Assembly: GCA_003599055.1 (NCBI GenBank)
Contig: QZIM01000002.1
Location: 70,097 to 134,096 of the forward strand
Direction: 5' to 3'
From: Candidatus Woesearchaeota archaeon
GTDB lineage: Archaea; Nanobdellota; Nanobdellia; Woesearchaeales; ARS49
Length of the DNA: 64,000 bases
Shown here piece by piece: positions 917 through 54,865 of the stretch (the stretch's first letter is position 1; every line of letters starts with the position of its first letter). The position numbers and the translations under genes are program-made. Under the pieces are notes generated by a model that saw only the letters and a list, made by a program, of their open reading frames with translations, made no database searches and had not been told where the DNA came from.

Positions 917-1267
917 TCACTGCACAACTATTTTTCCTTTCATATTCGGGTGGGGGGTGCAGATATAGTCGTACGTTCCGGGGGTGTCAAAGGTGATTTC
1001 TTTGCTTTCTCCGCTGGCAAGGGGTCCGGTGTCAAAGGAGTCGCCGGTCGCGGTATGGGTGACGCGGTCGAGGTTTTTGAACCGTACGCTTTCGCCCGCC
1101 CGAATGGTTACAACAGGAGGATTGAACGCGAATCCTTCAATGGTGACTTCAGTGAGTTGTCCGGTTTGGACGGGTGTTGTTTCTCCGGGTGCGGGCGGGC
1201 TTGGGGGTAATTCTTCTGCGCAGGACGCCAAAAACAAGAGTGCAAGGAGTATCGCTGCTTTTTTCAT
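917..1267 (-). CDS. cupredoxin (plastocyanin/amicyanin-like blue copper) lipoprotein
   Basis: N-terminal signal with lipobox LASC followed by ELPPSPPAPGETT. The C-terminus carries the type-1 copper ligand pattern ...H...YICTPHPNMKG (His, Cys, His, Met). Confidence 0.75.
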   Translation of the reverse strand: MKKAAILLALLFLASCAEELPPSPPAPGETTPVQTGQLTEVTIEGFAFNPPVVTIRAGESVRFKNLDRVTHTATGDSFDTGPLASGESKEITFDTPGTYDYICTPHPNMKGKIVVQ

Positions 1268-1437
1268 TTTCCAATGGCGTGTTTTGCGGGTTTATATGTT
1301 TTTGCTCTCCTGATGACGGGTAACCGAACACTGGCGCCTGATAACTGAGAACCGATAACTGACAACCAACCACCAACTGCCAACCACAAACCGCCAGTTC
1401 CGCAGTCTTTTTATTGTGCGGTCATTTCCAACGCGGT

Positions 1438-2130: not shown

Positions 2131-2534
2131 AGGCGTTCTCTGAGTTCTTGTTTGAGCGCGTAGGTGAATGCGCGAAGGTCCGGGCTGCTTGGGCGGGCGT
2201 ATGGCTGTTCTTTTTGTTCTGAGCGCGGGATGGTGTTGCTGATGGTAAAGTCGCTGATGGTCTCCCGTGCAAGGATTTTGGCAAGGCTGCGCGCTGCGTC
2301 GTGGTAGATGCGCGGGTGTCCTGATGCGTTCTGCGCGGTGATTCGGTAAAGGGTATTTCCGATGGAGTAAAGGACGCGAAGCTCTTTTCCGCCGTCAAGA
2401 ATTCGATCTCCGAGCGCAATGTCTGTTGTGCGGGAGGTTGGCGCAGCGTCAAGGAGCGCGTCAAGGTCATCGCCAACAGTTGGAAGCGCGCTTTGGGTGA
2501 GCGCTTGTGCAACTGCTCTTTCTTCGGGAGTCAT
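2127..2534 (-). CDS. hypothetical protein
   Basis: ORF overlaps the DedA stop by 4 nt (convergent). An AT-rich TATA-like element lies about 27 nt upstream of its ATG, suggesting a leaderless mRNA. No recognisable motif. Confidence 0.4.
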   Translation of the reverse strand: MTPEERAVAQALTQSALPTVGDDLDALLDAAPTSRTTDIALGDRILDGGKELRVLYSIGNTLYRITAQNASGHPRIYHDAARSLAKILARETISDFTISNTIPRSEQKEQPYARPSSPDLRAFTYALKQELRERL

Positions 2535-2554
2535 ACGGCACGCCCTCAGGCAGT

Positions 2555-2590
2555 GATTTATTAAGCTTTGGATTTTATATAAATTATATG
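2555..2590. promoter_or_regulatory. divergent AT-rich promoter region with TATA-like boxes
   Basis: ttaataaat on the minus strand sits about 27 nt upstream of the ATG at 2534, and ttttatataaattatat on the plus strand sits upstream of the 2632 gene. The only AT-rich stretch in a GC-rich neighbourhood. Confidence 0.4.
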
Positions 2591-2631
2591 ATATCGCTCA
2601 TAATAATTATTCACTCTCGAGTGGTTATTTT

Positions 2632-4092: not shown

Positions 4093-5023
4093 TTGCCTGC
4101 GGTAAAAATCCTCTGATTTCTTCAACGCTTTTCGCCCTGCTCAGTTTGTCCCGCATTTCGGCTCCGCCGCGTATTCCTTTGGTGAAGCTCATCGCGTGGG
4201 TTAAAATGAGGGGGTATTTCAGGTTATATTTCTCTGCAAGTTCCAGAAATTCGAAAAAGTGCGCGATGCGGTCTGTTTCAGGATATTTTCCGTTTTTCAG
4301 ATAATCGTTTATCTGCGTGAACAAGTACGGGTTTCCGATTGCTCCGCGTGCAACAAGTATTGCATCAACGCCGCTTTGGTCAAGCCGTTTTTTAAAATCT
4401 TCAGGGGTGAACACATCGCCGTTTCCGATGACGGGAATGTTGACTTTTTCTTTCACGGTGCGAATAATGTCCCAGTTCGCAATCCCTGAGTAGCCTTGTT
4501 TTTGTGTCCTGCCGTGAATTGCAATCGCGGCAGCTCCCGCATCTTCCGCAAGCCGCGCAATTTCAAGTGCATTAATGTTTTGCTCATCAATTCCGATTCG
4601 TATCTTCAAGGTTACCGGTTTTGAAACAGCGCTTGCAAGTTTGTTGATGAATGTGGCAATGCCTTCAGGTTTTTTGAGCATTTCCGAGCCGGCGCCGGTC
4701 TTGATGACTTTCCACGCAGGGCAGCCGCAGTTAACGTCAATGAGGTCAAAGTCGTTTTCAACCAGCCGTGCTGCAGAGACAACGTCATCAACTGAGCTTC
4801 CGAATAGCTGGACGGCAACAGGAGTTTCAATCGGGTCGGTTTTGAGCATATCGAGCGTGTGCAGGTTGCCGCGAACAATCGCGGTCCCGCTCAAAAATTC
4901 AGTGCAGGTAAGTCCTGCGCCGTATTTCTTGCACAAAGCGCGAAACGCAACGTCCGTGACGCCTGCCATTGGCGAAAGTATTGCGGGCGATGCGAGTTTT
5001 GGGAATGCTGCTTTGTGCTTCAT
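4031..5023 (-). CDS. dus: tRNA-dihydrouridine synthase
   Basis: TIM-barrel flavoenzyme signature: PMAGVTD near the N-terminus, catalytic Cys in DVNCGCP, a FMN-binding K..IRIG block, and GNGD. Length 330 aa is typical of Dus. Confidence 0.85.
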   Translation of the reverse strand: MKHKAAFPKLASPAILSPMAGVTDVAFRALCKKYGAGLTCTEFLSGTAIVRGNLHTLDMLKTDPIETPVAVQLFGSSVDDVVSAARLVENDFDLIDVNCGCPAWKVIKTGAGSEMLKKPEGIATFINKLASAVSKPVTLKIRIGIDEQNINALEIARLAEDAGAAAIAIHGRTQKQGYSGIANWDIIRTVKEKVNIPVIGNGDVFTPEDFKKRLDQSGVDAILVARGAIGNPYLFTQINDYLKNGKYPETDRIAHFFEFLELAEKYNLKYPLILTHAMSFTKGIRGGAEMRDKLSRAKSVEEIRGFLPQATKLNSDEAAVRSDSAAQARN

Positions 5024-5370
5024 TTTTTCGGGCAGAACGGGCAGTCTCCGAATGGCAATGTGATGTGTCCGTTTGGGCAGAAGGGTGATTCTGGCCTGAG
5101 TTTTTGGCGTTCAACGTCTTGTCCGCTTGCGAGTTTTGCAAGGATGCTCGCAAGCCGAAAAAAGTCACTCAGAGGAGTCACGCTTCCTTGCCCCGAATAA
5201 GTGTCAATCACTTGTTTTTGTCCTGCGGTGTAGCCGAATTCAAGGGCTGCCTGGGCAAGCTTGTATGCGTCAGGGGGAAGTTCAGGGTTGTTTCGCAAGA
5301 CCGTGTAAGGAAGAGCACGTTGCGTGTGGTAGGTTTCTTCAAGTTCGCGTTTTACCTGTTCAGGGTCCAT
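5020..5370 (-). CDS. hypothetical protein with C-terminal zinc ribbon
   Basis: ATGA overlap with dus indicates translational coupling. C-terminal CPNGH...CPFCP forms a four-Cys zinc-ribbon pattern. Confidence 0.5.
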   Translation of the reverse strand: MDPEQVKRELEETYHTQRALPYTVLRNNPELPPDAYKLAQAALEFGYTAGQKQVIDTYSGQGSVTPLSDFFRLASILAKLASGQDVERQKLRPESPFCPNGHITLPFGDCPFCPKK

Positions 5371-5460
5371 ATCGTGGATTTTCTTGCAGTCTGTTTATAA
5401 AGAGTTCGGAAGATTTCCGGCAACAGGCAGAAGCATTCCGTGTTCTTCCCGCAAACGCAT

Positions 5461-5632
5461 TTTAAGAGAAAAATGAAAGAAAAAGTGCCAGTCAAAAGCT
5501 GGCAAAGACGGCGGCGCTGGGCGATGCTGGTTCGCCCGCCAAGCTGAGAACTTGGTGTCAGAAATGACCACGGGGTTCAAAAGCTTTGCGGTTTGGGCCG
5601 GGAGCGTGAAACTCCCCGCGCCGTCGTTCTTT
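5461..5632 (+). ncRNA. conserved structured element, copy 1 (candidate small RNA, T-tract end)
   Basis: About 170 nt that are roughly 80% identical to 6160-6330. Both copies begin tttaagagaaaaa, share an identical 53-nt core (cggggttcaaaagctttgcggtttgggccgggagcgtgaaactccccgcgccg), have complementary 5' (acggcggcg) and 3' (cgccgccgt) ends, and finish in a T-run. The shared ORF peptide does not extend beyond the core. Confidence 0.45.
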
Positions 5633-6069
5633 TACTTGTACTTTTCCTGCAGTGCATTCAAAAAGTGCGCAAAGTCCGGCGCGAGCGGATATTCCTGTAA
5701 TCGCGCAATCTGCAAATATTCAAGTTTGCTGAACCGTTCAGGCTCCTGAATTGCGGGTGTCCCGCGCTCAAGTCGCATCAAAAACTTGTACGCGACTGCT
5801 TCTTTTCCGCTTGGTATTTTGAACGGCACTTTTGCAAAGAGTTTAGGCGAAGAAAATGCAACGTCTCCCAGTTCTTCTTTTCCCTCGCGCACGGCTGCGC
5901 GTGCAAAGTCATCAATTGTTGGCGATGACGCGTCCTCGCAATCAGTTTCCTCAACTCTTCCGCCGGGTGTTTCCCAATGCGCGTGTTCCGGCCGGTACAA
6001 GAGCAGAAGCTCTTTTCGCTCGTTCACGATAAGGCAGCTGGCGAGCAGGAGTTTGCCGTTGTGTATCAT
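5632..6069 (-). CDS. NUDIX hydrolase
   Basis: Nudix box GGRVEETDCEDASSPTIDDFARAAVREGKEELG (Gx5Ex7REUxEExGU-like). Confidence 0.8.
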   Translation of the reverse strand: MIHNGKLLLASCLIVNERKELLLLYRPEHAHWETPGGRVEETDCEDASSPTIDDFARAAVREGKEELGDVAFSSPKLFAKVPFKIPSGKEAVAYKFLMRLERGTPAIQEPERFSKLEYLQIARLQEYPLAPDFAHFLNALQEKYK

Positions 6070-19945: not shown

Positions 19946-20724
19946 GGGACGATGAGGTTGATTCGGGCAAAATGCAGGAGGGGCACGCTGATGGCTGCGT
20001 AGACGGCAAGCGCAATTGGCGGCCGGAGCATCCAGTTGAGGGGCAAGGTGAGCGCGACAAAGGTGATGAGTGCGCTCACAAGCCACGCGGGACCTGCTTT
20101 TTTTGCCTGTTTGAATGCAAAGAGAAACGTGTTTTTAAACGTTTGGTCGTGCGAAAGAAGTGCGTAGCTTGTTTGGGCAAGATAGGCAATGATGGCTGTT
20201 GCGATGATGAAGAGCGCGCTTGCCGTTCCTGAGCTGACAACAGGGAGGATGGTGGTCGTGCTGCCTTCAAGGATGCTGTACGCAATCAGGGTTGCGAGAA
20301 GGAAGGCGAACCAAAGAAGTGTGAGCCCGATGAATTTGAGCCAAGTGCGCTTCAGTGATACGGGGTGTACGAGCGAGTGGCTAAGGTACCATATCGGCCC
20401 GCGCACAAGGAGCGTGATGCCAAGGATACCAAGGAAGAAGTAGGCAATGTTTTCCAAAAGGCGCAAATACGCGGTCATAAACGCGTCGTTTTCCGAGAGG
20501 GTTTGGTCAAGCGTGTACAGTTCCGCATCGGTTTTCTGCTGGATTTCTTCCTGCATCACTTCGCCTGCGCGAAGCGCGGCGTCTGCCGACGGGATAAAGA
20601 AGTGGTAATGCAGGTACAGGACAGAAATAAAGAAGATTGCTTCAAGCAGCAAAATGACGGGAAGCATCTTCTTGTTTTTCCAAAAGACATTCCACGATTT
20701 TGGCAGGGTTTGGGAGAGGGTCAT
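19930..20724 (-). CDS. polytopic membrane protein, hypothetical
   Basis: Six predicted TM helices. Its first 100 nt are duplicated at 21443-21543. Confidence 0.5.
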   Translation of the reverse strand: MTLSQTLPKSWNVFWKNKKMLPVILLLEAIFFISVLYLHYHFFIPSADAALRAGEVMQEEIQQKTDAELYTLDQTLSENDAFMTAYLRLLENIAYFFLGILGITLLVRGPIWYLSHSLVHPVSLKRTWLKFIGLTLLWFAFLLATLIAYSILEGSTTTILPVVSSGTASALFIIATAIIAYLAQTSYALLSHDQTFKNTFLFAFKQAKKAGPAWLVSALITFVALTLPLNWMLRPPIALAVYAAISVPLLHFARINLIVPWSKK

Positions 20725-20726
20725 GG
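20626..20726. repeat. 101-bp direct repeat, copy 1 (spans start codon of 19930..20724)
   Basis: 99 of 101 nt are identical to 21443-21543, which contains the ATG of the membrane gene overlapping the TGA of the PIN gene. Confidence 0.7.
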
Positions 20727-21119
20727 GGTAATGCGCGTTATGTTCTTGATTTGGTCAAAGTCATCATCGTAGCTTGCAATGGTGGTGATGCCATTTACTC
20801 GCATGGTTGCGAGGTGGATTGCGTCGCGGGGATTGAGATTATCATGAGTGTAAGCGTGGAGTGCTTCTTCGATGATTTGTTGTGTCGTATCAAGGAAGGC
20901 AAGGTTGCGGATATCGAGGAGGTTTCTCGCCACGTTTGCTGCGAAGGGCTTGCCTTTTTCCCGTTGCAGGGCCCACAGTGCTTCGTCGATAGTGAGAACG
21001 GACGTGGCTGCTTCTTGGTTTCCCTTGATGATGTGCATAAGGAGGCGTCTGCTCTTTTTTCCGGGTTCAGCATCATTTGCTGCTGAATTGATGAGGATAT
21101 TTGAGTCGATGTAAATCAT
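20721..21119 (-). CDS. vapC: PIN-domain ribonuclease (VapC toxin)
   Basis: MIYIDSNILIN with the first Asp, about 133 aa, acidic residues later. Start placed at the internal ATG so that it overlaps the antitoxin stop (ATGA). Confidence 0.7.
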   Translation of the reverse strand: MIYIDSNILINSAANDAEPGKKSRRLLMHIIKGNQEAATSVLTIDEALWALQREKGKPFAANVARNLLDIRNLAFLDTTQQIIEEALHAYTHDNLNPRDAIHLATMRVNGITTIASYDDDFDQIKNITRITP

Positions 21120-21358
21120 TGTTTTGCCAGGTGTTCTTCGTATTCTTTGGAAGTGTATGCTTTTTTTTGTCCGATTTCTTTTGCGCATCGTTCAAGAAAC
21201 GCAATCGGGTCCTCTGTGCGTGGCCTTGTGATGAGGATACCGTCAGGTGTTTCTTTAATGACGACGTCCTTTCCAGGGTAGAACTTGTACTCGTCTCGCA
21301 GTAGTTTTGGAATGAGCACTTGCCCTTTCGGCCCAAGTTTTACCGTGAGTTGTACCAT
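21116..21358 (-). CDS. vapB: AbrB/SpoVT-type antitoxin (VapB/MazE-like)
   Basis: LTVKLGPKGQVLIPKLLRDEY is a swapped-hairpin AbrB motif in an 80-aa protein, translationally coupled to the PIN gene. Confidence 0.65.
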   Translation of the reverse strand: MVQLTVKLGPKGQVLIPKLLRDEYKFYPGKDVVIKETPDGILITRPRTEDPIAFLERCAKEIGQKKAYTSKEYEEHLAKQ

Positions 21359-31503: not shown

Positions 31504-32409
31504 ATGAAAAGAGGTCAGGTTACTGTTTTTATCATATTGGGTATTTTGCTTCTTGCAGGGGTTGGTTTCTATCTTTACTTGTCCGGTCGTGAGGCAGAGG
31601 TTCCGCTTGAGGCGGGCGTGATGAAGCCGACAACAGACCCGCGGGTTTTTCAGGAGTTTGTTGAGGCGTGTCTTGCGGAGACCGTGACGCAGGGAGTTTA
31701 TACGATTGCGGCGCAAGGCGGCTATTCTGCGCCAAAGGGTGATTGGTCGCTTGGCGATTCCGGAGACGGTCTTCCGATTCACTATTATGTGCCTGAGGGG
31801 GTCGTGCCGTTTGTTTTGAACAGGAACGATTCGGCAGTGCGTCCTCTTGCTGATGTTGAGCTGGTTCTTGCGCGGTATGTTGCGGCGAATTTTGATGAGT
31901 GTTTGGACTTTTCTGATTTGGAAGCAAGAGGGTACGAGGTAAAAAAGCCAACTGTTGACTTTGAGGCGATAAACTGGGATTTTGCAAGGGCAAAAGTTGA
32001 GTTTGCGCAGGAGACCGTGCGAATAGATGCAGAGCTTCGGCCTGAGGGCGATATTTTTGTTCGCGCAAGATACCCGATTGCGGTAAGCGGCCTTGATGCG
32101 TCGTTTACGATTCCGGAAACTGCAGTGGTTGTGCCGCTTCGGCTGGCGTTGCTCCATAAGATTGCCGTGCGTCTTGCTGACCAGATAGGGAAGGCGGCAA
32201 GGCAGGGAAGTGCCTATAAGGTTGATGAGCATTGTCAGGAATATGCTCCGGCGGATATGCAGGTAAATGTGTATGCGTTCAAGAGCGGCGCCGTGCGTGA
32301 GGCGCTCATCACCGTAGTTGACGCAAGCCCGCGTCGTCTTGGCTTAGCCCCGCTTCGGTTCAATATTGCCGTGCGAAATGCGGATGCAGAAGGAGTGTGT
32401 CTTGGATGA
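31504..32409 (+). CDS. type-IV-pilin-like protein (class III signal peptide), 301 aa
   Basis: MKRGQVTVFIILGILLLAGVGFYLYLSGRE is a classic KRGQ prepilin-like start. Its conserved block (EFVEACLAETVTQGVYTIAAQGGY) is shared with the 694- and 713-aa paralogs. The 13-nt overlap with the downstream giant gene indicates co-transcription. Confidence 0.7.
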   Translation: MKRGQVTVFIILGILLLAGVGFYLYLSGREAEVPLEAGVMKPTTDPRVFQEFVEACLAETVTQGVYTIAAQGGYSAPKGDWSLGDSGDGLPIHYYVPEGVVPFVLNRNDSAVRPLADVELVLARYVAANFDECLDFSDLEARGYEVKKPTVDFEAINWDFARAKVEFAQETVRIDAELRPEGDIFVRARYPIAVSGLDASFTIPETAVVVPLRLALLHKIAVRLADQIGKAARQGSAYKVDEHCQEYAPADMQVNVYAFKSGAVREALITVVDASPRRLGLAPLRFNIAVRNADAEGVCLG

Positions 32410-35400
32410 AATCATTTGCGTTGTTTGCAATTATGTTGTTCTTGCTCTATCCGGTGGATGTTTCTGCGCAGCTTGACGGTGCGGACGGGGGTGAGGGTTT
32501 TGACTCATTTATTCCGGTGTTGGGAAATGTAACGGTGTCCATTGATGTCGCTTCTGTTGTCATTCCCGCATCTTTTAGTGGCGAGGATGTTTCTGCGCAA
32601 GTGAGTGTGCGGTTGGATGGGCCAAACCGGCAGGTAGGGGTTTTGGGAATCAAGATGACGCTCAAGAATTACACGGGCGGCGAGGCAGTTCTGTCAGGTG
32701 ACCAGTCGTTGACTGTTTCGCTGCAGCCGGATGCAGTGTCGAATGCGGTTGTTCTTGAAAATCTGAACTGGCGCATCTTTAGCTATTATGGGCAGTTGCA
32801 GCAGGGGCAAACCGGCTTTGGTCGCGAATTATTTTTTGATGTTCTGAAGGGCGGGAAGAATTATGGCCGTTTGGCGCTGAGTTTTGAATTGATTGACCCG
32901 CTTGCGGATGAGAGCGAGGTGACGATTTCAAAGGACGGCAGTAAGGTTGGTTCGGGTACGGTGTTTTCTGATGATGAGCCGCTTATCGACCAGTTCACGC
33001 AGGTGACGAATTTGTTTGCGGGTTTTGTGACGACGAGAAACGGCAATCCGGTGCAGACAGGGGAGATTCGGGCAGCAGTGGGAGGAGGGGTAATTGGCGG
33101 AGGGGCATTTGTTTCGGAAATCTCTGCGGTTGGCGAGCGCGGGGGGTATGGGTTCCACGGGCGCCCGATGGTTGTTTCAGGAGTGGTCGGCACTCCGGTT
33201 GATTTTTATTTTGGGGATTACAAATTGGAGACGGCGTATTTGACAAGTGAGGGGCAGGTGCGCAGGCTTGATTTCCAGCTTCCTATTGTGACGAGCGCAG
33301 TGAACTTCCCTGATTGGGATTTGGATGGGGTTCCTGATACGGAAGATGTCTGTCCGAGTTCTGATTCAAATTTGGTTGATGCGAACGGTTGCACCTGCGC
33401 GCAGCTGGTGGCGCTCAAGGGCGGAAGTTGCGTATATGTTCCCGGAAAAGGGCCGAAGTGGAGTCCTCCTGCGCCTCCGCCTCCGCAGTGTAAGACGCCA
33501 AATAAGTGCATAAGCGGCCAAGGCCCGAAGTTTTGCACGGAGAACTCAACAATTATCAATAATTGCGAAGAGTGCGGCTGTACGCCCGGGTTCACGTGTA
33601 ATCCCTGCCCTGAAGGGATGGAGTGCATTACGGATGGGAATTGTTACAAGGTAATTGAGCGGGTTGGGCTTAAGTGTTTGACAAATAAGTACGTGAACGG
33701 GCCCGGGCTGAATTGCTCGACATTGGGCAACACGTGGGTTGACGTTTTTGCAGAAGACCCGCTGAAGCGTGACTTGAGCAATTTCATTACGGTTGAGGTG
33801 GAGACGGGAACATTTGGGGGGAAGCGCAGGGATATTCGCCAGCAGATGGTGAACAATTTGAAGATGCAGAAGGTGTGCATTGATTCGGTTGACATTGGTT
33901 GTGTTCCGGAAGGGACAAAGTGTGCGGGTGAAGTGCTTTTGCAGCGGGACTTTGGTGAAGTGACCTCGGTACTTTCACAGTTCGTTCGGACAAAGACAAC
34001 GCGTGACCTTGCGGGAGCGCTTGCTTCGCCGCTGAATATCGGATTGTCGACAGGAGGCGCGCTTGCGGGTGCGCTGATTGGCGCGTCAATGGCAGGGCCG
34101 CTTCTTGCCGCAGGGCCGCTTGCCATTATCGGCTTGCTTGTCGGCGCAGTGATTGGCTTGCTTGGCGCGTTCTTTGCAAAGGTGCGCATTAAGTTTGGCC
34201 TGAACGTCCAGGCAATCAAGGATAGTTCTACAAAGGTGGCGTACGTTTGTGACCCTCTGTTGGTTCTTGGCAATATGACGTGTTCGCCGTTGATGCAAAA
34301 CACGGATTCTGATGGCGGAATTGATATTTTGTTTATGGCTGATGGGTATTCTGATGATGAGTTCCAAGCACTTGTTGAACAGCTTATCGACCGCAATAGT
34401 ACTGCGTCGGGTACGCGCAGGGAAGGTTTGTTCTCAAGAGAGCCGTTCCGCGGAAACAAGGGGCTGTTTAACGTGTGGATTATGACGGCAAACCAGTCGA
34501 TTGGCCACGTTGCGGATGAGTTCAGGCCATCGCTGGGAAGGCGTCCGAACATTACGGATGTTCGTCAGATTGCGGCGTACTGTCCGCAGCAGGACTTCAC
34601 GTTTGTTGTGACAAAGGGTGAGCGGTATTTCAGTGATTGCAGCTTTGAGGGAACGCAGCCGTGTTATTTGAGTATGGAAGATGAGGGTGTGCCGGGGCGG
34701 CAGGTGCTCCGTATGATGGGGAAGGCCTTGGGCGGTCTTGCAGATGAGTGGACTTTTGAGCGGGATGCGGTTCCAAGCAAGTATCGCGTGATGGGTCTTG
34801 AGTTTGTCGCAAGCGACAATCGTCCGAACTGTCAGACTGATGTGAATGAGGCGCGTGCGAAGTGGGGTGATAAGATTGCGGAGGCAGGGGTCGGCATTTT
34901 TGATGGGTGCGGCGGTGAATGTACGAATTGTGCGCGGTTCCAGCGCCCAACGTATAACAGCGCGATGCGGAATTGGACGCAACGGTGCACATCTGAAGGC
35001 AACTGTCGTGACGGCCCGCCGTACGACCCGTTCTATATTGTGAATGAGGAGGCGCTCATTGATGCAATGCAAAAATGGGGTGATGCAGAGGCAAGTGAGG
35101 AGGCGCCAAGCGCGCCGGTGTCGATGGAAGATGAGCAGGGTGGTAAAGAGGAGGTTTCAGAGGGGGAAGGGACGACCGAGTCTGATGTGAGTCAGGTTGA
35201 CATTAGCGTGTTTTCATTCAATCCGGGTTCAATTACGATTGCACGCGGAGAAAAAGTCCGATGGACAAACAAGGACGCAACCGAACACACGGTGACGGGA
35301 ACCGGGTTTGATTCGCGCCTCGCGCCGCAGCAGAGTTTTACAAGGACGTTTGACACTGCGGGGACGTTCACATACCAGTGCAGTATTCACCCGGAAATGC

Positions 35401-35423
35401 AGGGTGTTGTGATTGTCGAGTAG
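32397..35423 (+). CDS. giant mosaic surface protein (1008 aa): TSP3-like repeat, Cys-rich module, internal Gly-zipper TM, degenerate M64-peptidase-like domain, C-terminal cupredoxin
   Basis: Signal peptide MSWMKSFALFAIMLFLLYPVDVSAQ. DWDLDGVPDTEDVCP is a thrombospondin-3-type Ca-binding repeat. A Gly-zipper TM helix lies mid-protein (GALAGALIGASMAGPLLAAGPLAIIGLLVGAVIGLL). IDILFMADGYSDDEF...GGLADEW resembles the IgA-peptidase M64 fold but has no HExxH. The C-terminal cupredoxin carries H...CSIHPEMQG. Confidence 0.75.
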   Translation: MSWMKSFALFAIMLFLLYPVDVSAQLDGADGGEGFDSFIPVLGNVTVSIDVASVVIPASFSGEDVSAQVSVRLDGPNRQVGVLGIKMTLKNYTGGEAVLSGDQSLTVSLQPDAVSNAVVLENLNWRIFSYYGQLQQGQTGFGRELFFDVLKGGKNYGRLALSFELIDPLADESEVTISKDGSKVGSGTVFSDDEPLIDQFTQVTNLFAGFVTTRNGNPVQTGEIRAAVGGGVIGGGAFVSEISAVGERGGYGFHGRPMVVSGVVGTPVDFYFGDYKLETAYLTSEGQVRRLDFQLPIVTSAVNFPDWDLDGVPDTEDVCPSSDSNLVDANGCTCAQLVALKGGSCVYVPGKGPKWSPPAPPPPQCKTPNKCISGQGPKFCTENSTIINNCEECGCTPGFTCNPCPEGMECITDGNCYKVIERVGLKCLTNKYVNGPGLNCSTLGNTWVDVFAEDPLKRDLSNFITVEVETGTFGGKRRDIRQQMVNNLKMQKVCIDSVDIGCVPEGTKCAGEVLLQRDFGEVTSVLSQFVRTKTTRDLAGALASPLNIGLSTGGALAGALIGASMAGPLLAAGPLAIIGLLVGAVIGLLGAFFAKVRIKFGLNVQAIKDSSTKVAYVCDPLLVLGNMTCSPLMQNTDSDGGIDILFMADGYSDDEFQALVEQLIDRNSTASGTRREGLFSREPFRGNKGLFNVWIMTANQSIGHVADEFRPSLGRRPNITDVRQIAAYCPQQDFTFVVTKGERYFSDCSFEGTQPCYLSMEDEGVPGRQVLRMMGKALGGLADEWTFERDAVPSKYRVMGLEFVASDNRPNCQTDVNEARAKWGDKIAEAGVGIFDGCGGECTNCARFQRPTYNSAMRNWTQRCTSEGNCRDGPPYDPFYIVNEEALIDAMQKWGDAEASEEAPSAPVSMEDEQGGKEEVSEGEGTTESDVSQVDISVFSFNPGSITIARGEKVRWTNKDATEHTVTGTGFDSRLAPQQSFTRTFDTAGTFTYQCSIHPEMQGVVIVE

Positions 35424-35553: not shown

Positions 35554-36471
35554 TCATTCTTCTGAAACATCCCTTACTATCGGCCCCAAATACAATCGCA
35601 GCCAGCTCAGGAACAGTATCACAAAAAGAATGTTGATTGCGGAGCCGAATTGTCCGGGTATAAGTCGAAATACGTTTTCTGCAATGACTGAGATGAGGAG
35701 GGCAAGGCTTGCGGGAACAAGGAGGAGGTAAAATTTGGAAAGCCCGTTTGCGATGCCGAGCGTGATGCTTTTTCCGATTTTTTGTTTTTCAATGAAAATG
35801 ACGTGGACCCAAAGGGAAAAGTACATTGCAACAACGCCAAGGGCGATGATGCTGAAGGTGAGGACTTCCGGGTTTTTTGAGAGTGCGGCGGCAAGGATGC
35901 CAAAGGGGATGAGCCAAAGGGCCCACCAGGCGAGGGTAAGTTTGAGGAAGGAGCGCGCAAATTTTTTGTTGTATGTTTTGCGGAAAATGACGGGCCAAAT
36001 GTATCCGCGGCTGATGCCGTTTGCGGTAACGCAAATGAGCCAGAATGCGAGAAGCCCGCCTCCGATGGACCAAAGGAGGGTTTGTGCGCCGGCAAGGTTT
36101 TGCGCGGCAAGCTCGGGGCTGAGCATTGCCTGCTGGGTGATGCTTGTTCCTGCGATGACGTTTTGTGAGACTTTGTTGAGTGCGAAAAGAATGCCGTATC
36201 CGCTGATGAGAAATGCTGCCCAGTAGGCAGCGTCTGCAAGTGCGGTGATGATGAGGTCTTTTCCGCGTGATGCGGCGTGAATTGCAGAGTCAAGTGTGCG
36301 TTTTCCGTATGCGCTTGGCGCGGATAGGAGGAGAATGCCTGCGGCAAGGAGGAGTTTTGATTCTGCTCCTGCAATGATGGAGAGTATTGCAATAACGAGC
36401 GTAACTGCTCCAATACCGCGCGTTGCAGTGAGATGCTGCTGCCAACCCCTCTTTTTCATGGAGTGTAACAC
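35554..36471 (-). CDS. polytopic membrane protein, hypothetical
   Basis: Eight or nine TM segments and no recognisable motif. Confidence 0.5.
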   Translation of the reverse strand: MLHSMKKRGWQQHLTATRGIGAVTLVIAILSIIAGAESKLLLAAGILLLSAPSAYGKRTLDSAIHAASRGKDLIITALADAAYWAAFLISGYGILFALNKVSQNVIAGTSITQQAMLSPELAAQNLAGAQTLLWSIGGGLLAFWLICVTANGISRGYIWPVIFRKTYNKKFARSFLKLTLAWWALWLIPFGILAAALSKNPEVLTFSIIALGVVAMYFSLWVHVIFIEKQKIGKSITLGIANGLSKFYLLLVPASLALLISVIAENVFRLIPGQFGSAINILFVILFLSWLRLYLGPIVRDVSEE

Positions 36472-36502: not shown

Positions 36503-36808
36503 TCAGTGTGCGGGAATTATTTTGAGCCCGTCTTTTTCTTCGATGAGGATGATTTCACTTTCTTTGGTGAGGCGGTATTTTGCCGCAAGAGCCTTTGGAA
36601 TGCGAAGGCCAAGGCTCGCGCCCCAAGATGACAATTTAACGTGATATTTCTTGAGCACGCGATATTTTTCTGCAAGCGCGTGGAGTTGGGTCATATTCAG
36701 GATTTCATTGCGGCAATTCTTGCAGCGGTAGTACGTATAGGGTATGCCGTCGGGCATAGTTCCTTCGGCAGGAGTCATTTCCTCTCCGCATTCCGTGCAT
36801 TTTTTCAT
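36503..36808 (-). CDS. zinc-ribbon plus AbrB/SpoVT-domain protein (antitoxin-like)
   Basis: N-terminal CTECGEEM...CKNC zinc ribbon fused to a swapped-hairpin AbrB segment (KLSSWGASLGLRIPKALAAKYRL...IILIEEKDGLKIIP). It lies 4 nt downstream of the DUF4258 gene. Confidence 0.55.
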   Translation of the reverse strand: MKKCTECGEEMTPAEGTMPDGIPYTYYRCKNCRNEILNMTQLHALAEKYRVLKKYHVKLSSWGASLGLRIPKALAAKYRLTKESEIILIEEKDGLKIIPAH

Positions 36809-37667: not shown

Positions 37668-40379
37668 TTATCCTGTTTGGTTTTGTGGTATGACGAGTGT
37701 TGTTGGCCCGCCGGTGTAGTCTGAGAATGGCACGCAGAGTTCTCGAACGGTCCCTGAATAGAACGCGTCTCCTGAGGGGAGTCCCGGATTAAACGTTAGG
37801 CAGGCAGTATCATATTCGTTGGTGCTTTGGTTGTAGAAGTGGTTGAAGTCCGTGTCTCCTGGGTCTAACAGTCTGTCTTGCGGGTACAGCCGTACGCTTG
37901 AAAGGGCGGGAAGCCCGTTGACGCGGGTGCGTACGGGCCGAACGTAGCGTCCGATTGCAGTGCTTTGGTTGAGGTCTTCGAGTGTTAACGGTCCAAGGGA
38001 TGTTCTGTTCATTTGCGCTTGGACGCTTGCTGCGGTTGCCGCCGCAAGCGCAAGTTGGGCGCTCGCGGAGGTTCTGCGTAGTTCAACGTTGAATCTCAGC
38101 TTGTCTGACTCTAAATTGTTCGTAATGCTGTACTGCACGTGGTACAATCGGAGCGTGAGCGGTCCGAGTATTGTAGGGTCGAATGTCGGGTCGGTTAAGT
38201 CTACTCTTCGTCCGCCGACAACGCTTTGGTTTCCGAGGATGTCAATGAGTTGTTGTGCGCTGAGTCCTGCAAGAAGGATTGGTTCTGACCGTTCTGCGTT
38301 GATAACTGCGCTGTTTTTGTATTCTGCTCTGCCGGTCCTGCCGATAAGCACGTTGTCTGCTTCAAATTTGTGGATTTGTCCGCAAATGGCAGAGACAAGG
38401 CAGTTGTCTATGCCGGCAAACCCGCAGAAGCTTTGCGCAAGCCGCGCCCTGTTTTCTTCAATGAAGTCTCCGATGAATAGTGAACTGAGTTGTGCAAACC
38501 CGCTGAACTGGTCGTAGTTTCGGAAGAAGTCCCCAACGAGCCGGTCCCAGCTTGCAAGGTCGTAGTATCCTCCCCAGCTCGCACGGCGGGTGTTCAGTTG
38601 GGTTGCGTCTGCTTGTTCTTTCAAGAGCGCGGCTTCCTCTTCGCTGATTCCCTGTCGCCGAAGGTATGCTTCTGCTTCAGCATCGCCGCCTACGATTACT
38701 TTCTCTCCATCCTCATTCACTCTAAAATAATCTCCGGCCTCATCAACACCCAAAACTATTTCTCCATTTCTCCTAATCTCCGTCGTTCTTGCCAGTTCGG
38801 TATACGTTGCGGGTTTGTTTTCAAGCGCTTTGATTTCGTCTTCTTTTTCTTTGATTGCTTCTCGGTCGGGAGGTCTTGCATTTCTGAGTCGGGTTAATTC
38901 TCCTTGTTCTCGTTCAACGACTTCATTGCGGGTGACGTGGTCGACGCTGATTTCTCCGATTGCGCGGGATTGGCCGGAGGGCAATTGCCTGCCTTGTGAA
39001 TCAGTGTCCGTGAAAATCGTGGTGCTTTCCCGCCGTGGGATTTGAACCGTGACTGCATTTGTACCTGTGCCTATTCTGCGCTCTTCATTGTAGGTGGTTC
39101 TTTCCTGATAAATGGTTTCTCCGCCGGGTCCTCCTTCTTCTATAACTGTGCGCTCCCTTCGTGCATAGACGTAGCCTGCATCGGACAAGATATCATCTGG
39201 AACCACGGGATAATCTATTGTTTTTTTAACGGTGTCGGTGAAGAAAAATCCTTTCTGCTGTCTTGTAAATTCTATACGGTAATGTTCATCGCCAACTTTA
39301 GAAAATCTTGCACCGTCAGGATCTGCTGCGAGGGCTGTTGCAAGGTCGTTCATAAATGAACGGGGCAGAGCATCTCCGATAAGGTCGCCTTTTTCAACAG
39401 ATTCGGAGGTTCCGTGGAAGTCAGTTATCTCTAAATCAGCAGTCTTATCAATGTGCAGGTTTCCCTCGTCGTCCACCCACGCAGTGAGGTCTTTTAGTTC
39501 TGTATCTCTTAGCAGAGTCTGTTCTGCTTCAGTGAGTGTGCGGCCAGGGGTACGTGCTTCTGTTGAAGAGGCAGCGCCTGATCCAGAATCTGCTTCAGGT
39601 CGGCCGGTCGCCACTTCGGATGGTGTTGCGGCGGGTTCAATTTCACCTCGAAGTGCTGTGCGTATATCTTCCTGATTGGCACTGCTATCTTGGCGTCTCT
39701 GTCCTCCAACATCTCTCCACGCGGTGATTATTCGGTTATTGCTGTCTATTCTGTACTCAGTAACGGTCCCGTCATCTTCAATATACAAGACGTTTCGATT
39801 TCCACTTGAGTCAGGAGGAGTCATAAAGACTTGTTTGTCTGCAAAAGACGATTGCTGATAGGTCGAGCCTTGATAGGTGACTCTGTCGTTTTGCGCAGTC
39901 GCTCCAGGTATTCGCTCACGGTATGTTCCGGCAATATCTCGTGAAGGAGGAGAGGGGTTTACGTTTGCAGGTATGTTTGTTGTTCCTATGCTGCTGATTC
40001 CTCCTGGGCTGAGCGTGTATGGTACTGTCACTGCTATGGACGGTCCAATTCTGCTTACTTTTTGAACAATATTAATTCCTTCTGGTGGGATTTGCTGTCC
40101 AACAAAAACTCCATTTGGGTCATAAACTCTTCCGTTGGACGCTACCCGGTAATCGGTCGTTGTTCCGTATCGGATTTCGGGATTGGCTGAGGAGGATATA
40201 AATAAGATTCTGTTGCGCTCAGCGATGTGCGTATTTTGATTGTAATTGTCAATTGCCTCTCGAGAGTGTATCAGTTGGTCTCCCTCCAGTCGCAAATCTA
40301 TTTGTTGGCCTGATACTCCTAGAATACAAATGCACAGTGAAAGAATGATTGCGCTCGTGCGTGATGTTTTCAAGGTCAT
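37668..40379 (-). CDS. giant secreted protein (903 aa)
   Basis: Start placed at the internal ATG (MTLKTSRTSAIILSLCICILGVSGQQ, a signal peptide), which overlaps the stop of the upstream 1073-aa gene (ATGA). Beta-rich with no catalytic motifs. Confidence 0.65.
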   Translation of the reverse strand: MTLKTSRTSAIILSLCICILGVSGQQIDLRLEGDQLIHSREAIDNYNQNTHIAERNRILFISSSANPEIRYGTTTDYRVASNGRVYDPNGVFVGQQIPPEGINIVQKVSRIGPSIAVTVPYTLSPGGISSIGTTNIPANVNPSPPSRDIAGTYRERIPGATAQNDRVTYQGSTYQQSSFADKQVFMTPPDSSGNRNVLYIEDDGTVTEYRIDSNNRIITAWRDVGGQRRQDSSANQEDIRTALRGEIEPAATPSEVATGRPEADSGSGAASSTEARTPGRTLTEAEQTLLRDTELKDLTAWVDDEGNLHIDKTADLEITDFHGTSESVEKGDLIGDALPRSFMNDLATALAADPDGARFSKVGDEHYRIEFTRQQKGFFFTDTVKKTIDYPVVPDDILSDAGYVYARRERTVIEEGGPGGETIYQERTTYNEERRIGTGTNAVTVQIPRRESTTIFTDTDSQGRQLPSGQSRAIGEISVDHVTRNEVVEREQGELTRLRNARPPDREAIKEKEDEIKALENKPATYTELARTTEIRRNGEIVLGVDEAGDYFRVNEDGEKVIVGGDAEAEAYLRRQGISEEEAALLKEQADATQLNTRRASWGGYYDLASWDRLVGDFFRNYDQFSGFAQLSSLFIGDFIEENRARLAQSFCGFAGIDNCLVSAICGQIHKFEADNVLIGRTGRAEYKNSAVINAERSEPILLAGLSAQQLIDILGNQSVVGGRRVDLTDPTFDPTILGPLTLRLYHVQYSITNNLESDKLRFNVELRRTSASAQLALAAATAASVQAQMNRTSLGPLTLEDLNQSTAIGRYVRPVRTRVNGLPALSSVRLYPQDRLLDPGDTDFNHFYNQSTNEYDTACLTFNPGLPSGDAFYSGTVRELCVPFSDYTGGPTTLVIPQNQTG

Positions 40380-43300
40380 CCTCCCTCTCCTCCTTCTGCC
40401 GCTTTTCGTTCTTTTTCTTGTTCTTCCATATCTTCTTGGATGTCTTCCATTCGTTTGCAGTATTGTCCGGGGACGGACTTGAATAAATTCTTGGTTCTTG
40501 CCATGCTGACGGTGCTGGTGACTGCTTCGGCAACAAGGGAGATTGTCCTGAAGACTGCGCAGGCGGTGAATGCAGGGCTGGTCTCGTAGATGCTGCACAT
40601 GGGCATGCAAAGGAGGGTGAGCCCGACTGTTACGACGGCGACGGGGTTTGACAATAGTTCAGTGAGCATTCCTGCAACTCTGTTTGCGAATTGTGCAAAG
40701 GGTATTGCGGCAAAGACTTGTCCGATGACGTATTGGCAGAGGTTGTATTGGTACATTTCTTGGCAATAACTGATGGGGTATCCGCGTTCTTTAACTTCGT
40801 CGTGCAGGCAGACTGCCTTAAAGCAGTTCACCTGGCGTAATTTTTCAACGTTATACACAATGCCGGGCAGGCACAGGCAGAACACGCTCCAAACGAGTGA
40901 GTCTTTGATGCTGGGCATTCCAAGGCCGAGGACTTCTGATGCTTTGGAGCAAAGGGGGTTTATTCCTCCGCTAAAGTAGGAGGTGAATGCTTGTCCGGAG
41001 GTTTGTTCTTGTTTTCCTGTTTCCGGGTCTATTTTGGCAACTTCTTGAGGGGTCGTGATGGGCTTTCCGTCATCACCAACTTTTCCGGTCGGGGTTTGCT
41101 GTTCTTCTGTAACACTTCCTTTAACCTCTCCTCCGCAGTTGATGAAGAAGCAGAAGAGTGAGAGTGCTTCTCCGATGGATTGGAATGTTCCTTGGGTTGC
41201 GGTGTTGGTTCCGCACAGTGCTGCGTTGACGCCTGCGACGCCTGCGGCGGCGGGGGCGCCGATGCCGGTGTTGAGAAGCCCGTCGCGCATCGTGCCAAGG
41301 GCGGCGTTAATGACGGTGAGGACATTGATGAGTGAGCTGACAATGCTTTTTACCCTGCACAGCAATTCAAAATAGTACAGTGCTTTGCGCAGTGTTCCGA
41401 GCCAGTCCGCGTTGGCAAGGGCGTCGCCCATTGCGCGCTCGATTTGCTTGTCAACTTCCGCGTACATATCTTCTTGGGGTTGGTTGTAGAATTCGGCAAG
41501 GTAGGGGACTTTGATGACTTGGGGTTGTGGTGAGATGACCCCGCCGCCGGGTATTGCCCGTTTGGTGAGGATGGTCATTGGGCAGGTGACATTTACGGAG
41601 TTGAGATAGTAGTTTTTGGCCTCAAGCTTGAAAACAACAAGCGGATTGCGGCTTCCTTCCTGCACGTTCGAGGTGTAGACGTCGCTCACAACGTTTTCAA
41701 GGTCGCCGATGCATTCGGATGGGTTTTCCGGCCCGCGGATGCGGTAGGGTTCGACGTCTCTGCGTGTGCTGGTTAATTCAACTGAGCAGCTCGCGTATGG
41801 CGGAATGAGGCTTGCGGTTGCGCGGTTAATGAGTTTGGGCGTGCACGTGACGCGCGGTATCCAGTATTGCCCGCGTGTTTCGTTGTCAAGCCCAAAGACT
41901 TCAAGCGCGGCTGAAGTGTTGGCGACATTGCCTGCATCATCAGTAAACACGAATGGTATTGTTGCAAGGTAGGGTCCTGACAGTTCGATTTTGCTTTCAA
42001 ACGTGCACTCAATTGCGGAAGTGTCATTCTCAGGGACGCCGCAAATGCCGGGGACGGTTTTGCCGCCGATTTCGCTAAAGTTCGCGTACGCGTCGGTGAA
42101 GTTTGCGCTCGAGACAACGTATTGTGCGAAGTTTCCGCGAACAGCTCCGGTAATGTTTGGGTTATCTTCGCCTTTGATAATGCGTGAGCTGATGATTCGC
42201 GGAGGCGCAGGCGGCGAGTCATCGTAAACAATCGGAACTGCAGTTTCTTTTCCTGCAGTGTTGTCAAGGTCGTCTGCGGAGCCGGAAAGGACGGTGACAG
42301 TGTACCCTCCTTCAGGGGTTCCTTTGGGCGGATTAAGGGTCCACGTGCAGCGCCAAATGCTTCCTTCAGAGGGCGCGCAGTATCCTGCCTGTACAAAGTT
42401 TGGAAGGCCAAGTTCGCTTAAGTCAAGTGCGGCAAGCCTGCGGTTGATGCCGATTCCTGCGCCGCCTGAATTATCTTTTTCGTCAAACTCAAGGGTCAGC
42501 GCGGTTCCTCTGCCAAGGAGCGGTATGTTGCTGCGGAACCGTTCGGAAACAACGCGGACAAACTGCGGGCCGACGTTGTCGCTTTTGACAGAACACGAGT
42601 AGTCTTTTGCCGCGGCATTCCCAAGCTTGTCTTTTGCCGTGACGGTGATTTTGCAGATGCTTGGCTCGACAACGGGGACGTTTTGCCAGATGGCAATGTT
42701 TCCTGCAACCCGGTCGGGTGTTCGAAGCCCGCTAAGGGACGGGGCAATGGAGGACAGGTCTGCTTTTATCTCTTTGGAATCAACGCCGATTTCATCGATA
42801 ATTTCAACGGTGACGGTGGCAATGGTATCCTGTCCTTTGCGGATGTGGGTGAGCCGAACGCCCTTGCTATCAACAATGCTTGGCTCGCGGATGTCAGGAG
42901 GGGTGGAATCAATGATGATTTGTTGGCAGGAGGGCAAGCTTTCCTGGTTGACAAAGTCAGTGGCGTATGCGCAAAGGCCGCCGCTTTCCGTGAGGCGTAC
43001 GGGAATTTGGCGGTCTTTTGAGCAGATGCCGGGCTGTCCTGTTTCTTCAAGGACGGGTTTTCCATTGAGGGTGAGCGTGATTTTTTTGATTCCGCTGCAG
43101 TCTTGGGGTTGCCCGTGTGTTAAGCCGTAATCGTGTGCGGAGAGGCGGACCGCAACTTCGCCCGTGCTGTGGATGGGTGTGACATTGTAGGCGACGATTT
43201 GCGGGGGCAGCCCGTCGATGCGCAGGTTTTTGGTTTCGGACTTGACGATTTTGTCATCGTCGTTTCGCAGTTCGAGGCGGAACGTGAGCGGCTCGTACGC

Positions 43301-53905: not shown

Positions 53906-54865
53906 ATGAAACGAAAAGTCATTCAAATCGCTGATTCAACGCAATTGATTTCTCTGCCGCGCAAGTGGTGCTTGGCAAATAATGTCAAGAAGGGGGACGA
54001 GCTGAATGTGGAAACTGAAGGGCAGCTCATTACGGTAAGCTGCAAGCAGGAAATGCGCATAGAACGGGCGGAATTGCGGATGAAGGATTACGGCCCGCTC
54101 GCTCCGCGTGTTATTTATTCACTGTATCGCAAGGGAATTGATGAGTTGAAAGTGTATTACGATGACCCTGAGGAAGTTCAGGCGATTCAGAAAAATCTGC
54201 GGGATGCAACCGGGTATGAGATTGTGGAGCAGGACAGCAAGAGCATTCTTATCAAGAACATCAGCAGCAATATTATGGGGTTTGACTCGATGCTGCGAAG
54301 GACGTTTCTTCTCCTCATCAGCCAGGCAGAGGAGTGCGCAAAGGCGTTTTCGGAAAAAAACGTTTCCGCGCTTAAGAATCTGGTCAGTCTCGAGGAGAGC
54401 AACAATCATTTTACGACGGTTTGCAGAAGATACCTGAACAAGTATGAGGCGCCAAAGAGTATGAAAACAGGCCCCTTGTATTCGATTGTTCAGGAAATTG
54501 AAAAGATTGCGGACGAGTACAAGTATTTGGTTCAGGCAATCGAGCAGCACCGGTCTGATTTCGCAAAGACTGCGGGCAGTCTTGCAGGATTGTATAAGGG
54601 TGTATCAGCAATGATGCGGGAAGTGTATGAGGTGTTCTATAAGTTTGACCCGCACAAGTTTTCCGCAATTGCCGAGGCAAGGCAGAAAATTGTGGAGCAG
54701 GCAACGGAGAAAATGAAGGCGGCAAAAAGCCCGATTGAGTTTTTGATGGTGCATCATCTGATAGTCATAACGCAAAAAGCATTCAATATGCTCGGCTCAA
54801 TGATTATTCTGACTGCTCCAGTTGCTGAATCACTTGCTTCAGTGAGTAAACATCAGGACATCTGA
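53906..54865 (+). CDS. PhoU-like regulator with N-terminal AbrB/SpoVT DNA-binding domain
   Basis: The N-terminal VIQIADSTQLISLPRKW swapped-hairpin motif and about 250 aa of paired helical PhoU-like repeats match the common archaeal phosphate-uptake-regulator architecture. Confidence 0.65.
   Translation: MKRKVIQIADSTQLISLPRKWCLANNVKKGDELNVETEGQLITVSCKQEMRIERAELRMKDYGPLAPRVIYSLYRKGIDELKVYYDDPEEVQAIQKNLRDATGYEIVEQDSKSILIKNISSNIMGFDSMLRRTFLLLISQAEECAKAFSEKNVSALKNLVSLEESNNHFTTVCRRYLNKYEAPKSMKTGPLYSIVQEIEKIADEYKYLVQAIEQHRSDFAKTAGSLAGLYKGVSAMMREVYEVFYKFDPHKFSAIAEARQKIVEQATEKMKAAKSPIEFLMVHHLIVITQKAFNMLGSMIILTAPVAESLASVSKHQDI

Follow-up and report, generated by a model that had tools for sequence, protein, structure and literature searches.

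The 64,000-nucleotide stretch of DNA analysed here (the window) comes from Candidatus Woesearchaeota archaeon and spans positions 70,097 to 134,096 of contig QZIM01000002.1 (assembly GCA_003599055.1). It belongs to the DPANN archaea, which have tiny genomes and depend on other cells, and whose large surface proteins are almost entirely unannotated. Near the middle of the window lies the gene for one such protein, the subject of this study (the target). In its product, a domain related to M64 metallopeptidases, with a substituted catalytic zinc site, is combined with a Cys-rich module, a hydrophobic insertion and a C-terminal cupredoxin domain. The features of the locus are collected in Table 1.

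Table 1. Coordinates of the target gene, its domains and motifs, and the accompanying genes in the window (aa, amino acids; AF2, AlphaFold2; pLDDT, predicted local distance difference test; HMM, hidden Markov model; dN/dS, ratio of nonsynonymous to synonymous substitution rates)
Feature	Position	Strand	Remarks
Target gene	32406..35423	+	pseudo-M64/cupredoxin envelope protein
Signal peptide, Sec-type	32406..32468 (aa 4-24, ...VDVSA then Q)	+	predicted from hydropathy and ortholog conservation
N-terminal all-beta region	32499..33281 (aa 35-295)	+	AF2 mostly pLDDT 80-95, all strands
DxDxDGxxDxxDxC calcium-loop-type motif, single copy	33306..33359 (D306, D308, D310, G311, D314, D317, C319)	+	
Cys-rich module	33351..33923 (aa 319-509)	+	19 Cys; common to active relatives; most Cys invariant
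Gly/Ala/Leu-rich hydrophobic insertion	34014..34190 (aa 540-598)	+	two GxxxGxxxG, central G-P turn
M64-fold pseudo-peptidase domain	34191..35096 (aa 599-900)	+	HMM, phmmer, Foldseek
Degenerate active-site motif	34710..34751	+	R772-M-M-G-K776-A-L-G-G-L-A-D783-E784-W785 in place of HEXXHXXXGXXD-E-Y
Cysteine cluster C838-G-G-E-C842-T-N-C845	34908..34931	+	Cys conserved in dead and active clades
Acidic, fast-evolving linker	35097..35192 (aa 901-932)	+	dN/dS 0.65; AF2 pLDDT <50
Type-1 copper cupredoxin, amicyanin/plastocyanin-like	35193..35420 (within aa 929-1008)	+	ligands H964, C995, H998, M1001
Stand-alone cupredoxin	917..1267	-	lipobox-like signal LLFLASC
Upstream partner gene	31504..32409	+	301 aa, class-III (type-IV-pilin-like) signal MKRG then QVTVFIILG, long N-terminal helix
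Convergent downstream gene	35554..36471	-	~300 aa, several long hydrophobic stretches, likely polytopic membrane protein

The open reading frame (ORF) at 32397..35423 (+) was confirmed in the window and encodes 1008 aa when read from a GTG at 32397. The true start is likely the ATG at 32406, giving a protein of 1005 aa, because a GGAG at 32392-32395 lies 10 nt 5' of this ATG but 1 nt from the GTG, the orthologs begin with MKSF or MRRF, and the identical NCBI protein (hypothetical protein C4580_00635, Candidatus Woesearchaeota archaeon) has 1005 aa and starts with MKSF. Residue numbers throughout follow the 1008-aa numbering from the GTG. The hydrophobic N-terminus, MKSFALFAIMLFLLYPVDVSA followed by Q, is preserved across orthologs, which together with its hydropathy points to a signal peptide, as a preliminary description of this locus had proposed, with a probable cleavage site before the Q. 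The protein contains 31 Cys and four His (254, 704, 964 and 998), two of which (964 and 998) are copper ligands.

Homology to M64 peptidases and loss of the zinc site

By itself, the target scores 19.9 bits with the Pfam profile Peptidase_M64 (PF09471), covering profile positions 4-63 (E = 4.6e-4) and falling short of the cutoff of 26, and all four of its close homologs match the profile (best 1.8e-8). A phmmer comparison with the PDB returned two blocks collinear with the Bacteroides M64 peptidases 3p1v and 4df9, pairing vvHEFGHSFGGLADEY of these enzymes with vlRMMGKALGGLADEW of the target. An AF2 model of the target, built from a 26-sequence alignment, has a pLDDT of about 80-90 across aa 592-850, and when it was searched against the PDB with Foldseek, the top 17 matches were all M64 peptidases (probability 1.00, E down to 6.8e-10), foremost BF3526, BACOVA_00663 and the IgA protease of Thomasclavelia ramosa. 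Word-index homolog searches, run with the full protein and then with the 26-sequence alignment, gave the same 4 proteins both times. It took an exhaustive search, by phmmer with aa 600-920 against 1.84 billion cluster representatives, to reveal the family: 135 relatives were found, and the domain bridges to HExxH-bearing relatives at E <= 6e-52. This sequence bridging and the fold search show that the resemblance to M64 peptidases, first seen in the preliminary description, is true homology.

The catalytic motif of M64 peptidases is HEXXHXXXGXXD (PMC12402451). In BF3526, H311, H315 and D322 bind the zinc, E312 is the general base and Y324 forms a hydrogen bond with the scissile carbonyl, while E323 and three Cys bind a second, structural zinc (PMC12402451). 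In the target, the Gly and the Asp of the motif alone survive. The replacement of HExxH by RMMGK, which had been proposed from the letters of this one sequence, is borne out by the phmmer alignment and by comparison across the clade described below, and no HExxH was found anywhere in the whole protein. The active relatives show 100% conservation of H772, E773, H776 and Y785 and 95% conservation of R745; all five are altered in the dead clade. D783, E784, C812, C838, C842, C845 and all other cysteines are retained there. With the catalytic H-E-H gone, the canonical zinc mechanism of proteolysis is almost certainly excluded, and the domain can be taken as catalytically dead by that mechanism.

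The retained residues suggest that a second metal site has outlived the first. The spacing of 54 residues between E784 and the first Cys, together with the CxxC, matches E551/C606/C616/C619 of the T. ramosa enzyme, and the cluster C838/C842/C845 probably forms a second, structural zinc site together with E784. This mapping was made by spacing, as the PDB profile alignment ended before the Cys cluster.

The substitutions define a clade (family members are cited below by representative, P, and compared loci by number, L). The eight closest of the 135 representatives, 35-59% identical to the target over the searched domain, all carry [R/Q][L/M/V]xx[K/R] at the site, and none has an HExxH anywhere. 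The variants found are LRMMGK, LRLMAK, LQLMGR, LRLAGK (twice), LRLAAK and LRVMGR, with the first His changed to R or Q, the Glu to M, L or V and the second His to K or R. The Tyr has become W or F. The more distant representatives that cover the site (E 6e-52 and weaker) nearly all read HE[FL]GHxxxxLxDEY; the sole exception to HExxH among them, P0034, has an extra Gly in the motif (HEFGGH). Aligned over the full length, the active relatives share the architecture of the target, in which a signal and a variable N-terminal module precede the DxDxDG...C motif, the Cys-rich module and, at the C-terminus, the M64 domain. A named source is given for about eight of the 135 members, in every case Candidatus Woesearchaeota, Nanoarchaeia or Nanoarchaeota, and P0020 (MEA3430387.1, Nanoarchaeota) is annotated 'M64 family metallopeptidase'. 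The target is a derived member of a multidomain M64-like metallopeptidase family whose named members are all DPANN. A search of GTDB species genomes with a narrower family profile returned 5 loci, three of which duplicate other loci compared here, and three GTDB species-representative genomes carry a dead-site gene.

Among the active relatives, the L009 locus encodes one of ~1500 aa (1207-5742, + strand) with two tandem M64-like domains, HEFGH in each, a third HExxH (HEMTH) near the N-terminus and the partner gene upstream. The title 'uncultured Methanosarcinales archaeon' is attached to the records of L001/L006 (CAYXXT010000029.1) and L009 (CAZIEE010000068.1). Yet L001 shares synteny with the window across several genes, at 57-67% protein identity, and these Methanosarcinales-titled metagenome-assembled genomes are likely mis-binned or mislabelled.

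In order to characterize selection on the different parts of the protein, dN/dS was computed against the 85%-identical ortholog of L003. It is lowest in the cupredoxin (0.055), followed by the N-terminal beta region (0.084), the motif and Cys-rich part (0.13) and the M64-like domain (0.18), and highest in the acidic linker (0.65). The dead domain is kept by purifying selection and is, in the usual sense of the term, a pseudoenzyme. The loss of all canonical catalytic residues would also fit a decaying relic of an M64 protease, a pseudogene in the making. We give this idea practically no credence, as the 1005-codon ORF is intact, equivalent substitutions occur in eight clusters that are 34-86% identical to the target over their full length, dN/dS in the domains is 0.06-0.18 and the operon context is conserved. 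Pseudogene decay is effectively refuted by dN/dS and clade conservation.

Alternatively, the domain could still be a hydrolase that works by a non-canonical mechanism, for example through D783/E784 with a differently bound metal, or assisted by the Arg and Lys. D783 and E784 are indeed retained, purifying selection acts on the domain, and the substituted positions are themselves conserved as basic residues (R/Q and K/R). However, neither the two zinc-binding His nor the base Glu nor the carbonyl-binding Tyr is left, the one His remaining in the domain (H704) is not conserved, and the clade has no conserved alternative set of metal ligands. We therefore regard such an activity as very unlikely and treat the domain in the following as a non-catalytic member of the M64 fold.

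The hydrophobic insertion and the cupredoxin domain

Directly before the M64-like domain lies an insertion that is specific to the dead clade. Kyte-Doolittle means over 19 residues reach 2.65 within aa 540-598, and the two GxxxGxxxG motifs, at 554-562 and 579-587, are the sole two in the target. AF2 places two helices here (545-563 and 573-588), with one glycine zipper each, at low confidence. An internal membrane-like segment was scored in all eight dead-clade representatives; the active relatives examined have none at this position, and among the non-dead relatives one isolated membrane-like window was seen in P0011, far upstream, and one in the fragment P0039. The insertion expands a linker of ~10 residues between a helix (aa 519-542) and a strand (VRIKFGLNV, aa 592-602) that are contiguous in the active, secreted relatives. 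It varies in length from about 21 to 58 residues across the dead clade, with a central Gly-Pro. The 820-aa relative P0013, in which HExxH is intact, has a partial, weakly hydrophobic Gly/Ala-rich expansion at exactly this loop, and it may represent an evolutionary intermediate toward the hairpin insertion.

Since both flanks of the insertion belong to one exported, Cys-rich fold and would lie on the same side, we infer that it forms a membrane hairpin or re-entrant anchor and not a single-pass helix. The preliminary description had seen a mid-protein glycine-zipper transmembrane helix at this place. The hydrophobic segment and its zippers are real, whereas the single-pass helix was rejected on the ground that the segment is a loop insertion between contiguous elements. 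A single pass would put the N-terminal half outside and leave the half with the M64-like and cupredoxin domains in the cytoplasm. Such a topology would suit P0005 and P0008, in which one hydrophobic stretch of ~20 residues alone scores as transmembrane, and KVRIK after the strongest helix of the target fits the positive-inside rule. It is nevertheless improbable, as the ~10-residue loop that received the insertion is flanked in the active relatives by parts of one exported, disulfide-rich protein, and the C-terminal half keeps 11 conserved Cys common to these secreted relatives. Cupredoxins, moreover, are extracytoplasmic proteins, and an export signal with a lipobox is found in the paralog at 917-1267. 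The hairpin or re-entrant anchor is thus the topology that we adopt below.

The C-terminal domain scores above cutoff with both Copper-bind (PF00127; 29.7 vs 21.2) and Cupredoxin_1 (PF13473; 30.3 vs 27). All four of its ligands align with those of amicyanin and of the nitrite-reductase cupredoxin domain, and they are preserved in P0002 and P0003. The amicyanin equivalog NCBIfam TIGR02657 gave 34.8 bits against a cutoff of 110.2. By these profiles and ligands, the domain is in all probability a bona fide cupredoxin sequence, as had been read before, and it may load copper and transfer electrons. The stand-alone cupredoxin lipoprotein that had been reported at 917-1267 is also there, on the minus strand and with its lipobox. 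Its sequence is 46% identical to that of the fused domain, of which it is the likely paralogous source.

The cupredoxin is confined to three of the eight dead-clade representatives (P0001-P0003). Since the dead site and the hairpin occur in all eight, the distribution indicates that the copper domain is a late addition and that the pseudo-protease did not evolve as its partner. This bears on the suggestion in the preliminary description that the protein performs redox or electron-transfer chemistry at the cell surface in place of proteolysis. The part about canonical proteolysis stands, while redox chemistry would be at most an add-on function in the cupredoxin-bearing lineage, and no partner for it was found in the 64 kb.

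It should also be considered that the fused cupredoxin may serve in copper sequestration or homeostasis, or be a tethered passenger, with no electron transfer linked to the pseudo-protease. Its restriction to three of eight representatives and its attachment by a fast-evolving acidic linker would fit this explanation, as would the separately anchored paralog and a window without a redox enzyme. Orphan copper proteins without respiratory chains have been reported in DPANN (PMC10936187), which is also in line with it. On the other hand, the full H/C/H/M set and the dN/dS of 0.055 are typical of functional electron carriers, yet they are compatible with storage or tethering as well. On balance, we consider sequestration or mere passage unlikely, and an electron carrier remains the function that we assign, provisionally, to the domain.

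The N-terminal half, the partner gene and the genomic context

For aa 25-539 of the target no sequence relative was found in the PDB, and Pfam gave a sub-threshold TSP_3 match alone. According to an alignment with P0009 and P0012, the all-beta N-terminal region is replaced by the partner module in the fused relatives. The motif that follows it, DWDLDGVPDTEDVC (D306..C319), was previously called a thrombospondin type-3 repeat. The motif itself is present and conserved, while TSP_3 (PF02412) scores 14.7-16.9 bits against a cutoff of 25, with one copy and no tandem repeats, so that a significant domain match cannot be claimed. AF2 confidence is low at this place. Because D306, D308, D310, D317 and C319 are invariant in 26 family members, we consider the motif real and functional-looking. 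The Cys-rich stretch noted earlier was confirmed by count.

The preliminary description missed a conserved gene directly upstream that is translationally coupled to the target. A 4-bp overlap (ATGA) joins the stop of this partner gene to the start codon of the target. Its product begins with MKRG-QVTVFIILGILLLAGVGF, in which M1-K2-G4-Q5-T7-F9-I10-I11-L12-G13 are invariant, and AF2 (pLDDT 73.6) predicts a helix at 3-27. We take the MKRG/Q N-terminus to be an archaeal class-III (prepilin-type) signal, as predicted by the established motif. A partner homolog lies directly upstream on the same strand at all eight distinct loci, namely the window, L003, L001 (=L006), L002 (=L007), L004 (=L008) and the HExxH-intact L005, L009 and L010, with the 4-bp overlap wherever the gene calls show the two ends. 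P0009, an active relative, carries the partner module as an N-terminal fusion to the protease (BLASTP E 1e-22), and P0012 appears to be fused likewise, judging from its N-terminal signal and the alignment. These fusions indicate that partner and protease probably act together. The partner itself matched nothing in Pfam, NCBIfam or the PDB sequences and gave no significant PDB fold (best E 0.015, probability 0.33).

The window contains three paralogous two-gene cassettes of this kind, at 31504-35423 (+), 30878-21538 (-) and 45735-40376 (-). Their first genes encode proteins of 301, 694 and 713 aa with the class-III-signal module, and a profile of the partner finds the paralogs at E 1e-19 to 3e-23. 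Their second genes, the starts of which are overlapped by 4 bp, encode large Sec-signal proteins of 1005, 2419 and 1073 aa. The repeated arrangement suggests that the giant surface proteins of this archaeon are served by a general anchor or adaptor system. Behind the 1073-aa gene and in the same orientation, a 980-aa ORF is listed at 37668-40610 (-), coordinates that overlap the end of that gene. Its listed start is an upstream TTG with an implausible Arg/His-rich leader, and the real start is probably internal, at the signal peptide MTLKTSRTSAIILSLCICILGVSG.

Downstream of the target, homologs of the convergent gene (30-96% identity) adjoin the dead-clade genes in L003, L002 and L004 and lie ~2 kb off in L001. 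Of the active loci, L005 was compared, and it has no homolog of the gene. No family or PDB match was found for the product, and its assignment to the same unit as the target is tentative. Elsewhere the window encodes large, unannotated secreted proteins and housekeeping functions (TruD, LysRS, Dus and a NOG1-type GTPase). The surface-protein cluster is flanked by genes of the toxin-antitoxin type at 36503-36808 (-), 20721-21188 (-) and 53906-54865 (+), which code for a zinc-ribbon and MazE/AbrB-like protein, a PIN-domain protein and a second MazE-like N-terminus. A strong and near-constant GC skew (about +0.1 to +0.29) runs across almost all 64 kb, and AT skew is negative on the + strand over almost the whole stretch, independent of gene orientation.

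Proposed role and comparison with known systems

We posit that the ancestor of the target was a secreted, multidomain zinc metallopeptidase of the M64 type, from a family encoded directly 3' of a gene with a pilin signal. One subclade would then have dismantled the catalytic zinc site and kept the fold, the scaffold cysteines, the Asp-Glu pair and the probable structural zinc site. The dead domain would most likely act as a non-cleaving protein- or peptide-binding or scaffold module by way of the old substrate cleft, and we speculate that the metal site is filled, against D783, by the Arg and Lys that are conserved where the His ligands once stood. The glycine-zipper hairpin, inserted in a surface loop, might tether the protein at the outer surface of the membrane and leave both halves outside. 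The youngest branch, to which the window belongs, seems to have appended a flexible, acidic linker and a copy of the amicyanin-like blue-copper protein of the genome. The complex would then hold a one-electron carrier at the cell surface, where the acidic linker could let the cupredoxin reach redox partners. All in all, we favour, with moderate confidence, a non-catalytic module for binding or scaffolding that is tethered to the membrane and, in this lineage, also presents a blue-copper carrier.

Several points weigh against it. The Pfam M64 score of the target itself is under the gathering cutoff. AF2 confidence is low for the hairpin, the topology of which follows from alignment logic, and the basic residues RTKTTRD and KVRIK flank its ends, which would ordinarily favour cytoplasmic flanks; these charges are not conserved in other members of the clade. 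In the cupredoxin, which is covered by 3 sequences, AF2 shows strands at a pLDDT of <50, and the fold assignment derives from the HMMs. Neither a redox partner nor a respiratory or copper enzyme was found in the 64-kb window. It is conceivable that the target regulates an active paralog elsewhere in the genome: the search for a second M64-like gene, which found none, covered the window and the compared loci.

A bolder interpretation takes the cassette of partner, dead protease, copper domain and membrane neighbour as the contact apparatus of an episymbiotic DPANN cell. If so, the dead cleft would clamp a protein of the host surface without cutting it, the hairpin would enter a membrane, possibly that of the host, and the cupredoxin would exchange electrons across the cell-cell interface. 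We regard this as a long shot.

Under the favoured interpretation, one large DPANN surface protein receives a clear ancestry, in an M64-type family so far named in DPANN only. The change of function would have been stepwise, with catalysis lost and the hairpin gained in one clade and the blue-copper domain added later, which makes a clean evolutionary story in a poorly understood group of organisms. The type is rare: it has eight cluster representatives, and the copper domain is seen in three. It raises testable questions, namely what the conserved dead protease binds on an archaeal surface and why type-1 copper proteins are kept, and even tethered, where no respiratory chain is visible in the window. 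It also offers a natural pseudo-M64 to set beside the IgA proteases studied in medicine. In the open-access literature we found no description of an archaeal dead M64 clade, a hairpin insertion, a cupredoxin fusion or a pilin-signal partner cassette of this kind.

Among proteins of known structure, the target shares its fold with BF3526 of Bacteroides fragilis (4df9/9qdi), BACOVA_00663 (3p1v) and the T. ramosa IgA protease (9qdh/9qa6), at Foldseek E values of 7e-10 to 6e-3. An N-terminal strand-helix block (IDILFMADGY...EGLFSREPF) and an active-site helix block (...GGLADE[YW]) are collinear with BF3526 and BACOVA_00663, and like the M64 peptidases the target keeps the Asp-Glu pair and a downstream Cys cluster, with a spacing like that of the structural zinc site. 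It differs from them in having RMMGK for HEXXH and Trp for Tyr, at an identity of ~17%, and in its accessory domains (calcium-loop motif, Cys-rich module, hydrophobic hairpin and cupredoxin). In contrast to the gut-bacterial M64 peptidases, its host is an archaeon, and neither IgA nor another substrate is indicated. The same overall architecture is found in the HExxH-intact DPANN proteins P0009 (MBT4651505.1, Woesearchaeota), P0010 and P0020, with an M64 domain 31-39% identical to that of the target and the partner gene upstream or fused. Unlike the target, these keep HE[FL]GH...DEY and R745 and have neither the hydrophobic insertion nor the cupredoxin.

The persistence of an M64 or zincin fold without its motif has precedents. 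In the trypanosomatid PF09471 cluster CL-X the catalytic motif is lost (PMC12402451), and CLCA-type zincins have substituted catalytic sites (PMC3650047). We liken both to the target by description only; they are eukaryotic and of independent origin, with no hairpin or cupredoxin reported. The copper domain resembles amicyanin, plastocyanin and halocyanin-type proteins in its H...C-x2-H-x2-M ligand pattern with a short, amicyanin-like loop. It stays far below the equivalog cutoffs and is hence not an amicyanin ortholog, and where blue copper proteins are commonly free or lipid-anchored proteins of 10-15 kDa, this one is fused to the C-terminus of a pseudo-protease of ~900 aa. Set against these systems, the target is an M64-like pseudo-peptidase and not a peptidase: it has the fold and the ancestry of M64, and the catalytic motif that defines the family has been lost.

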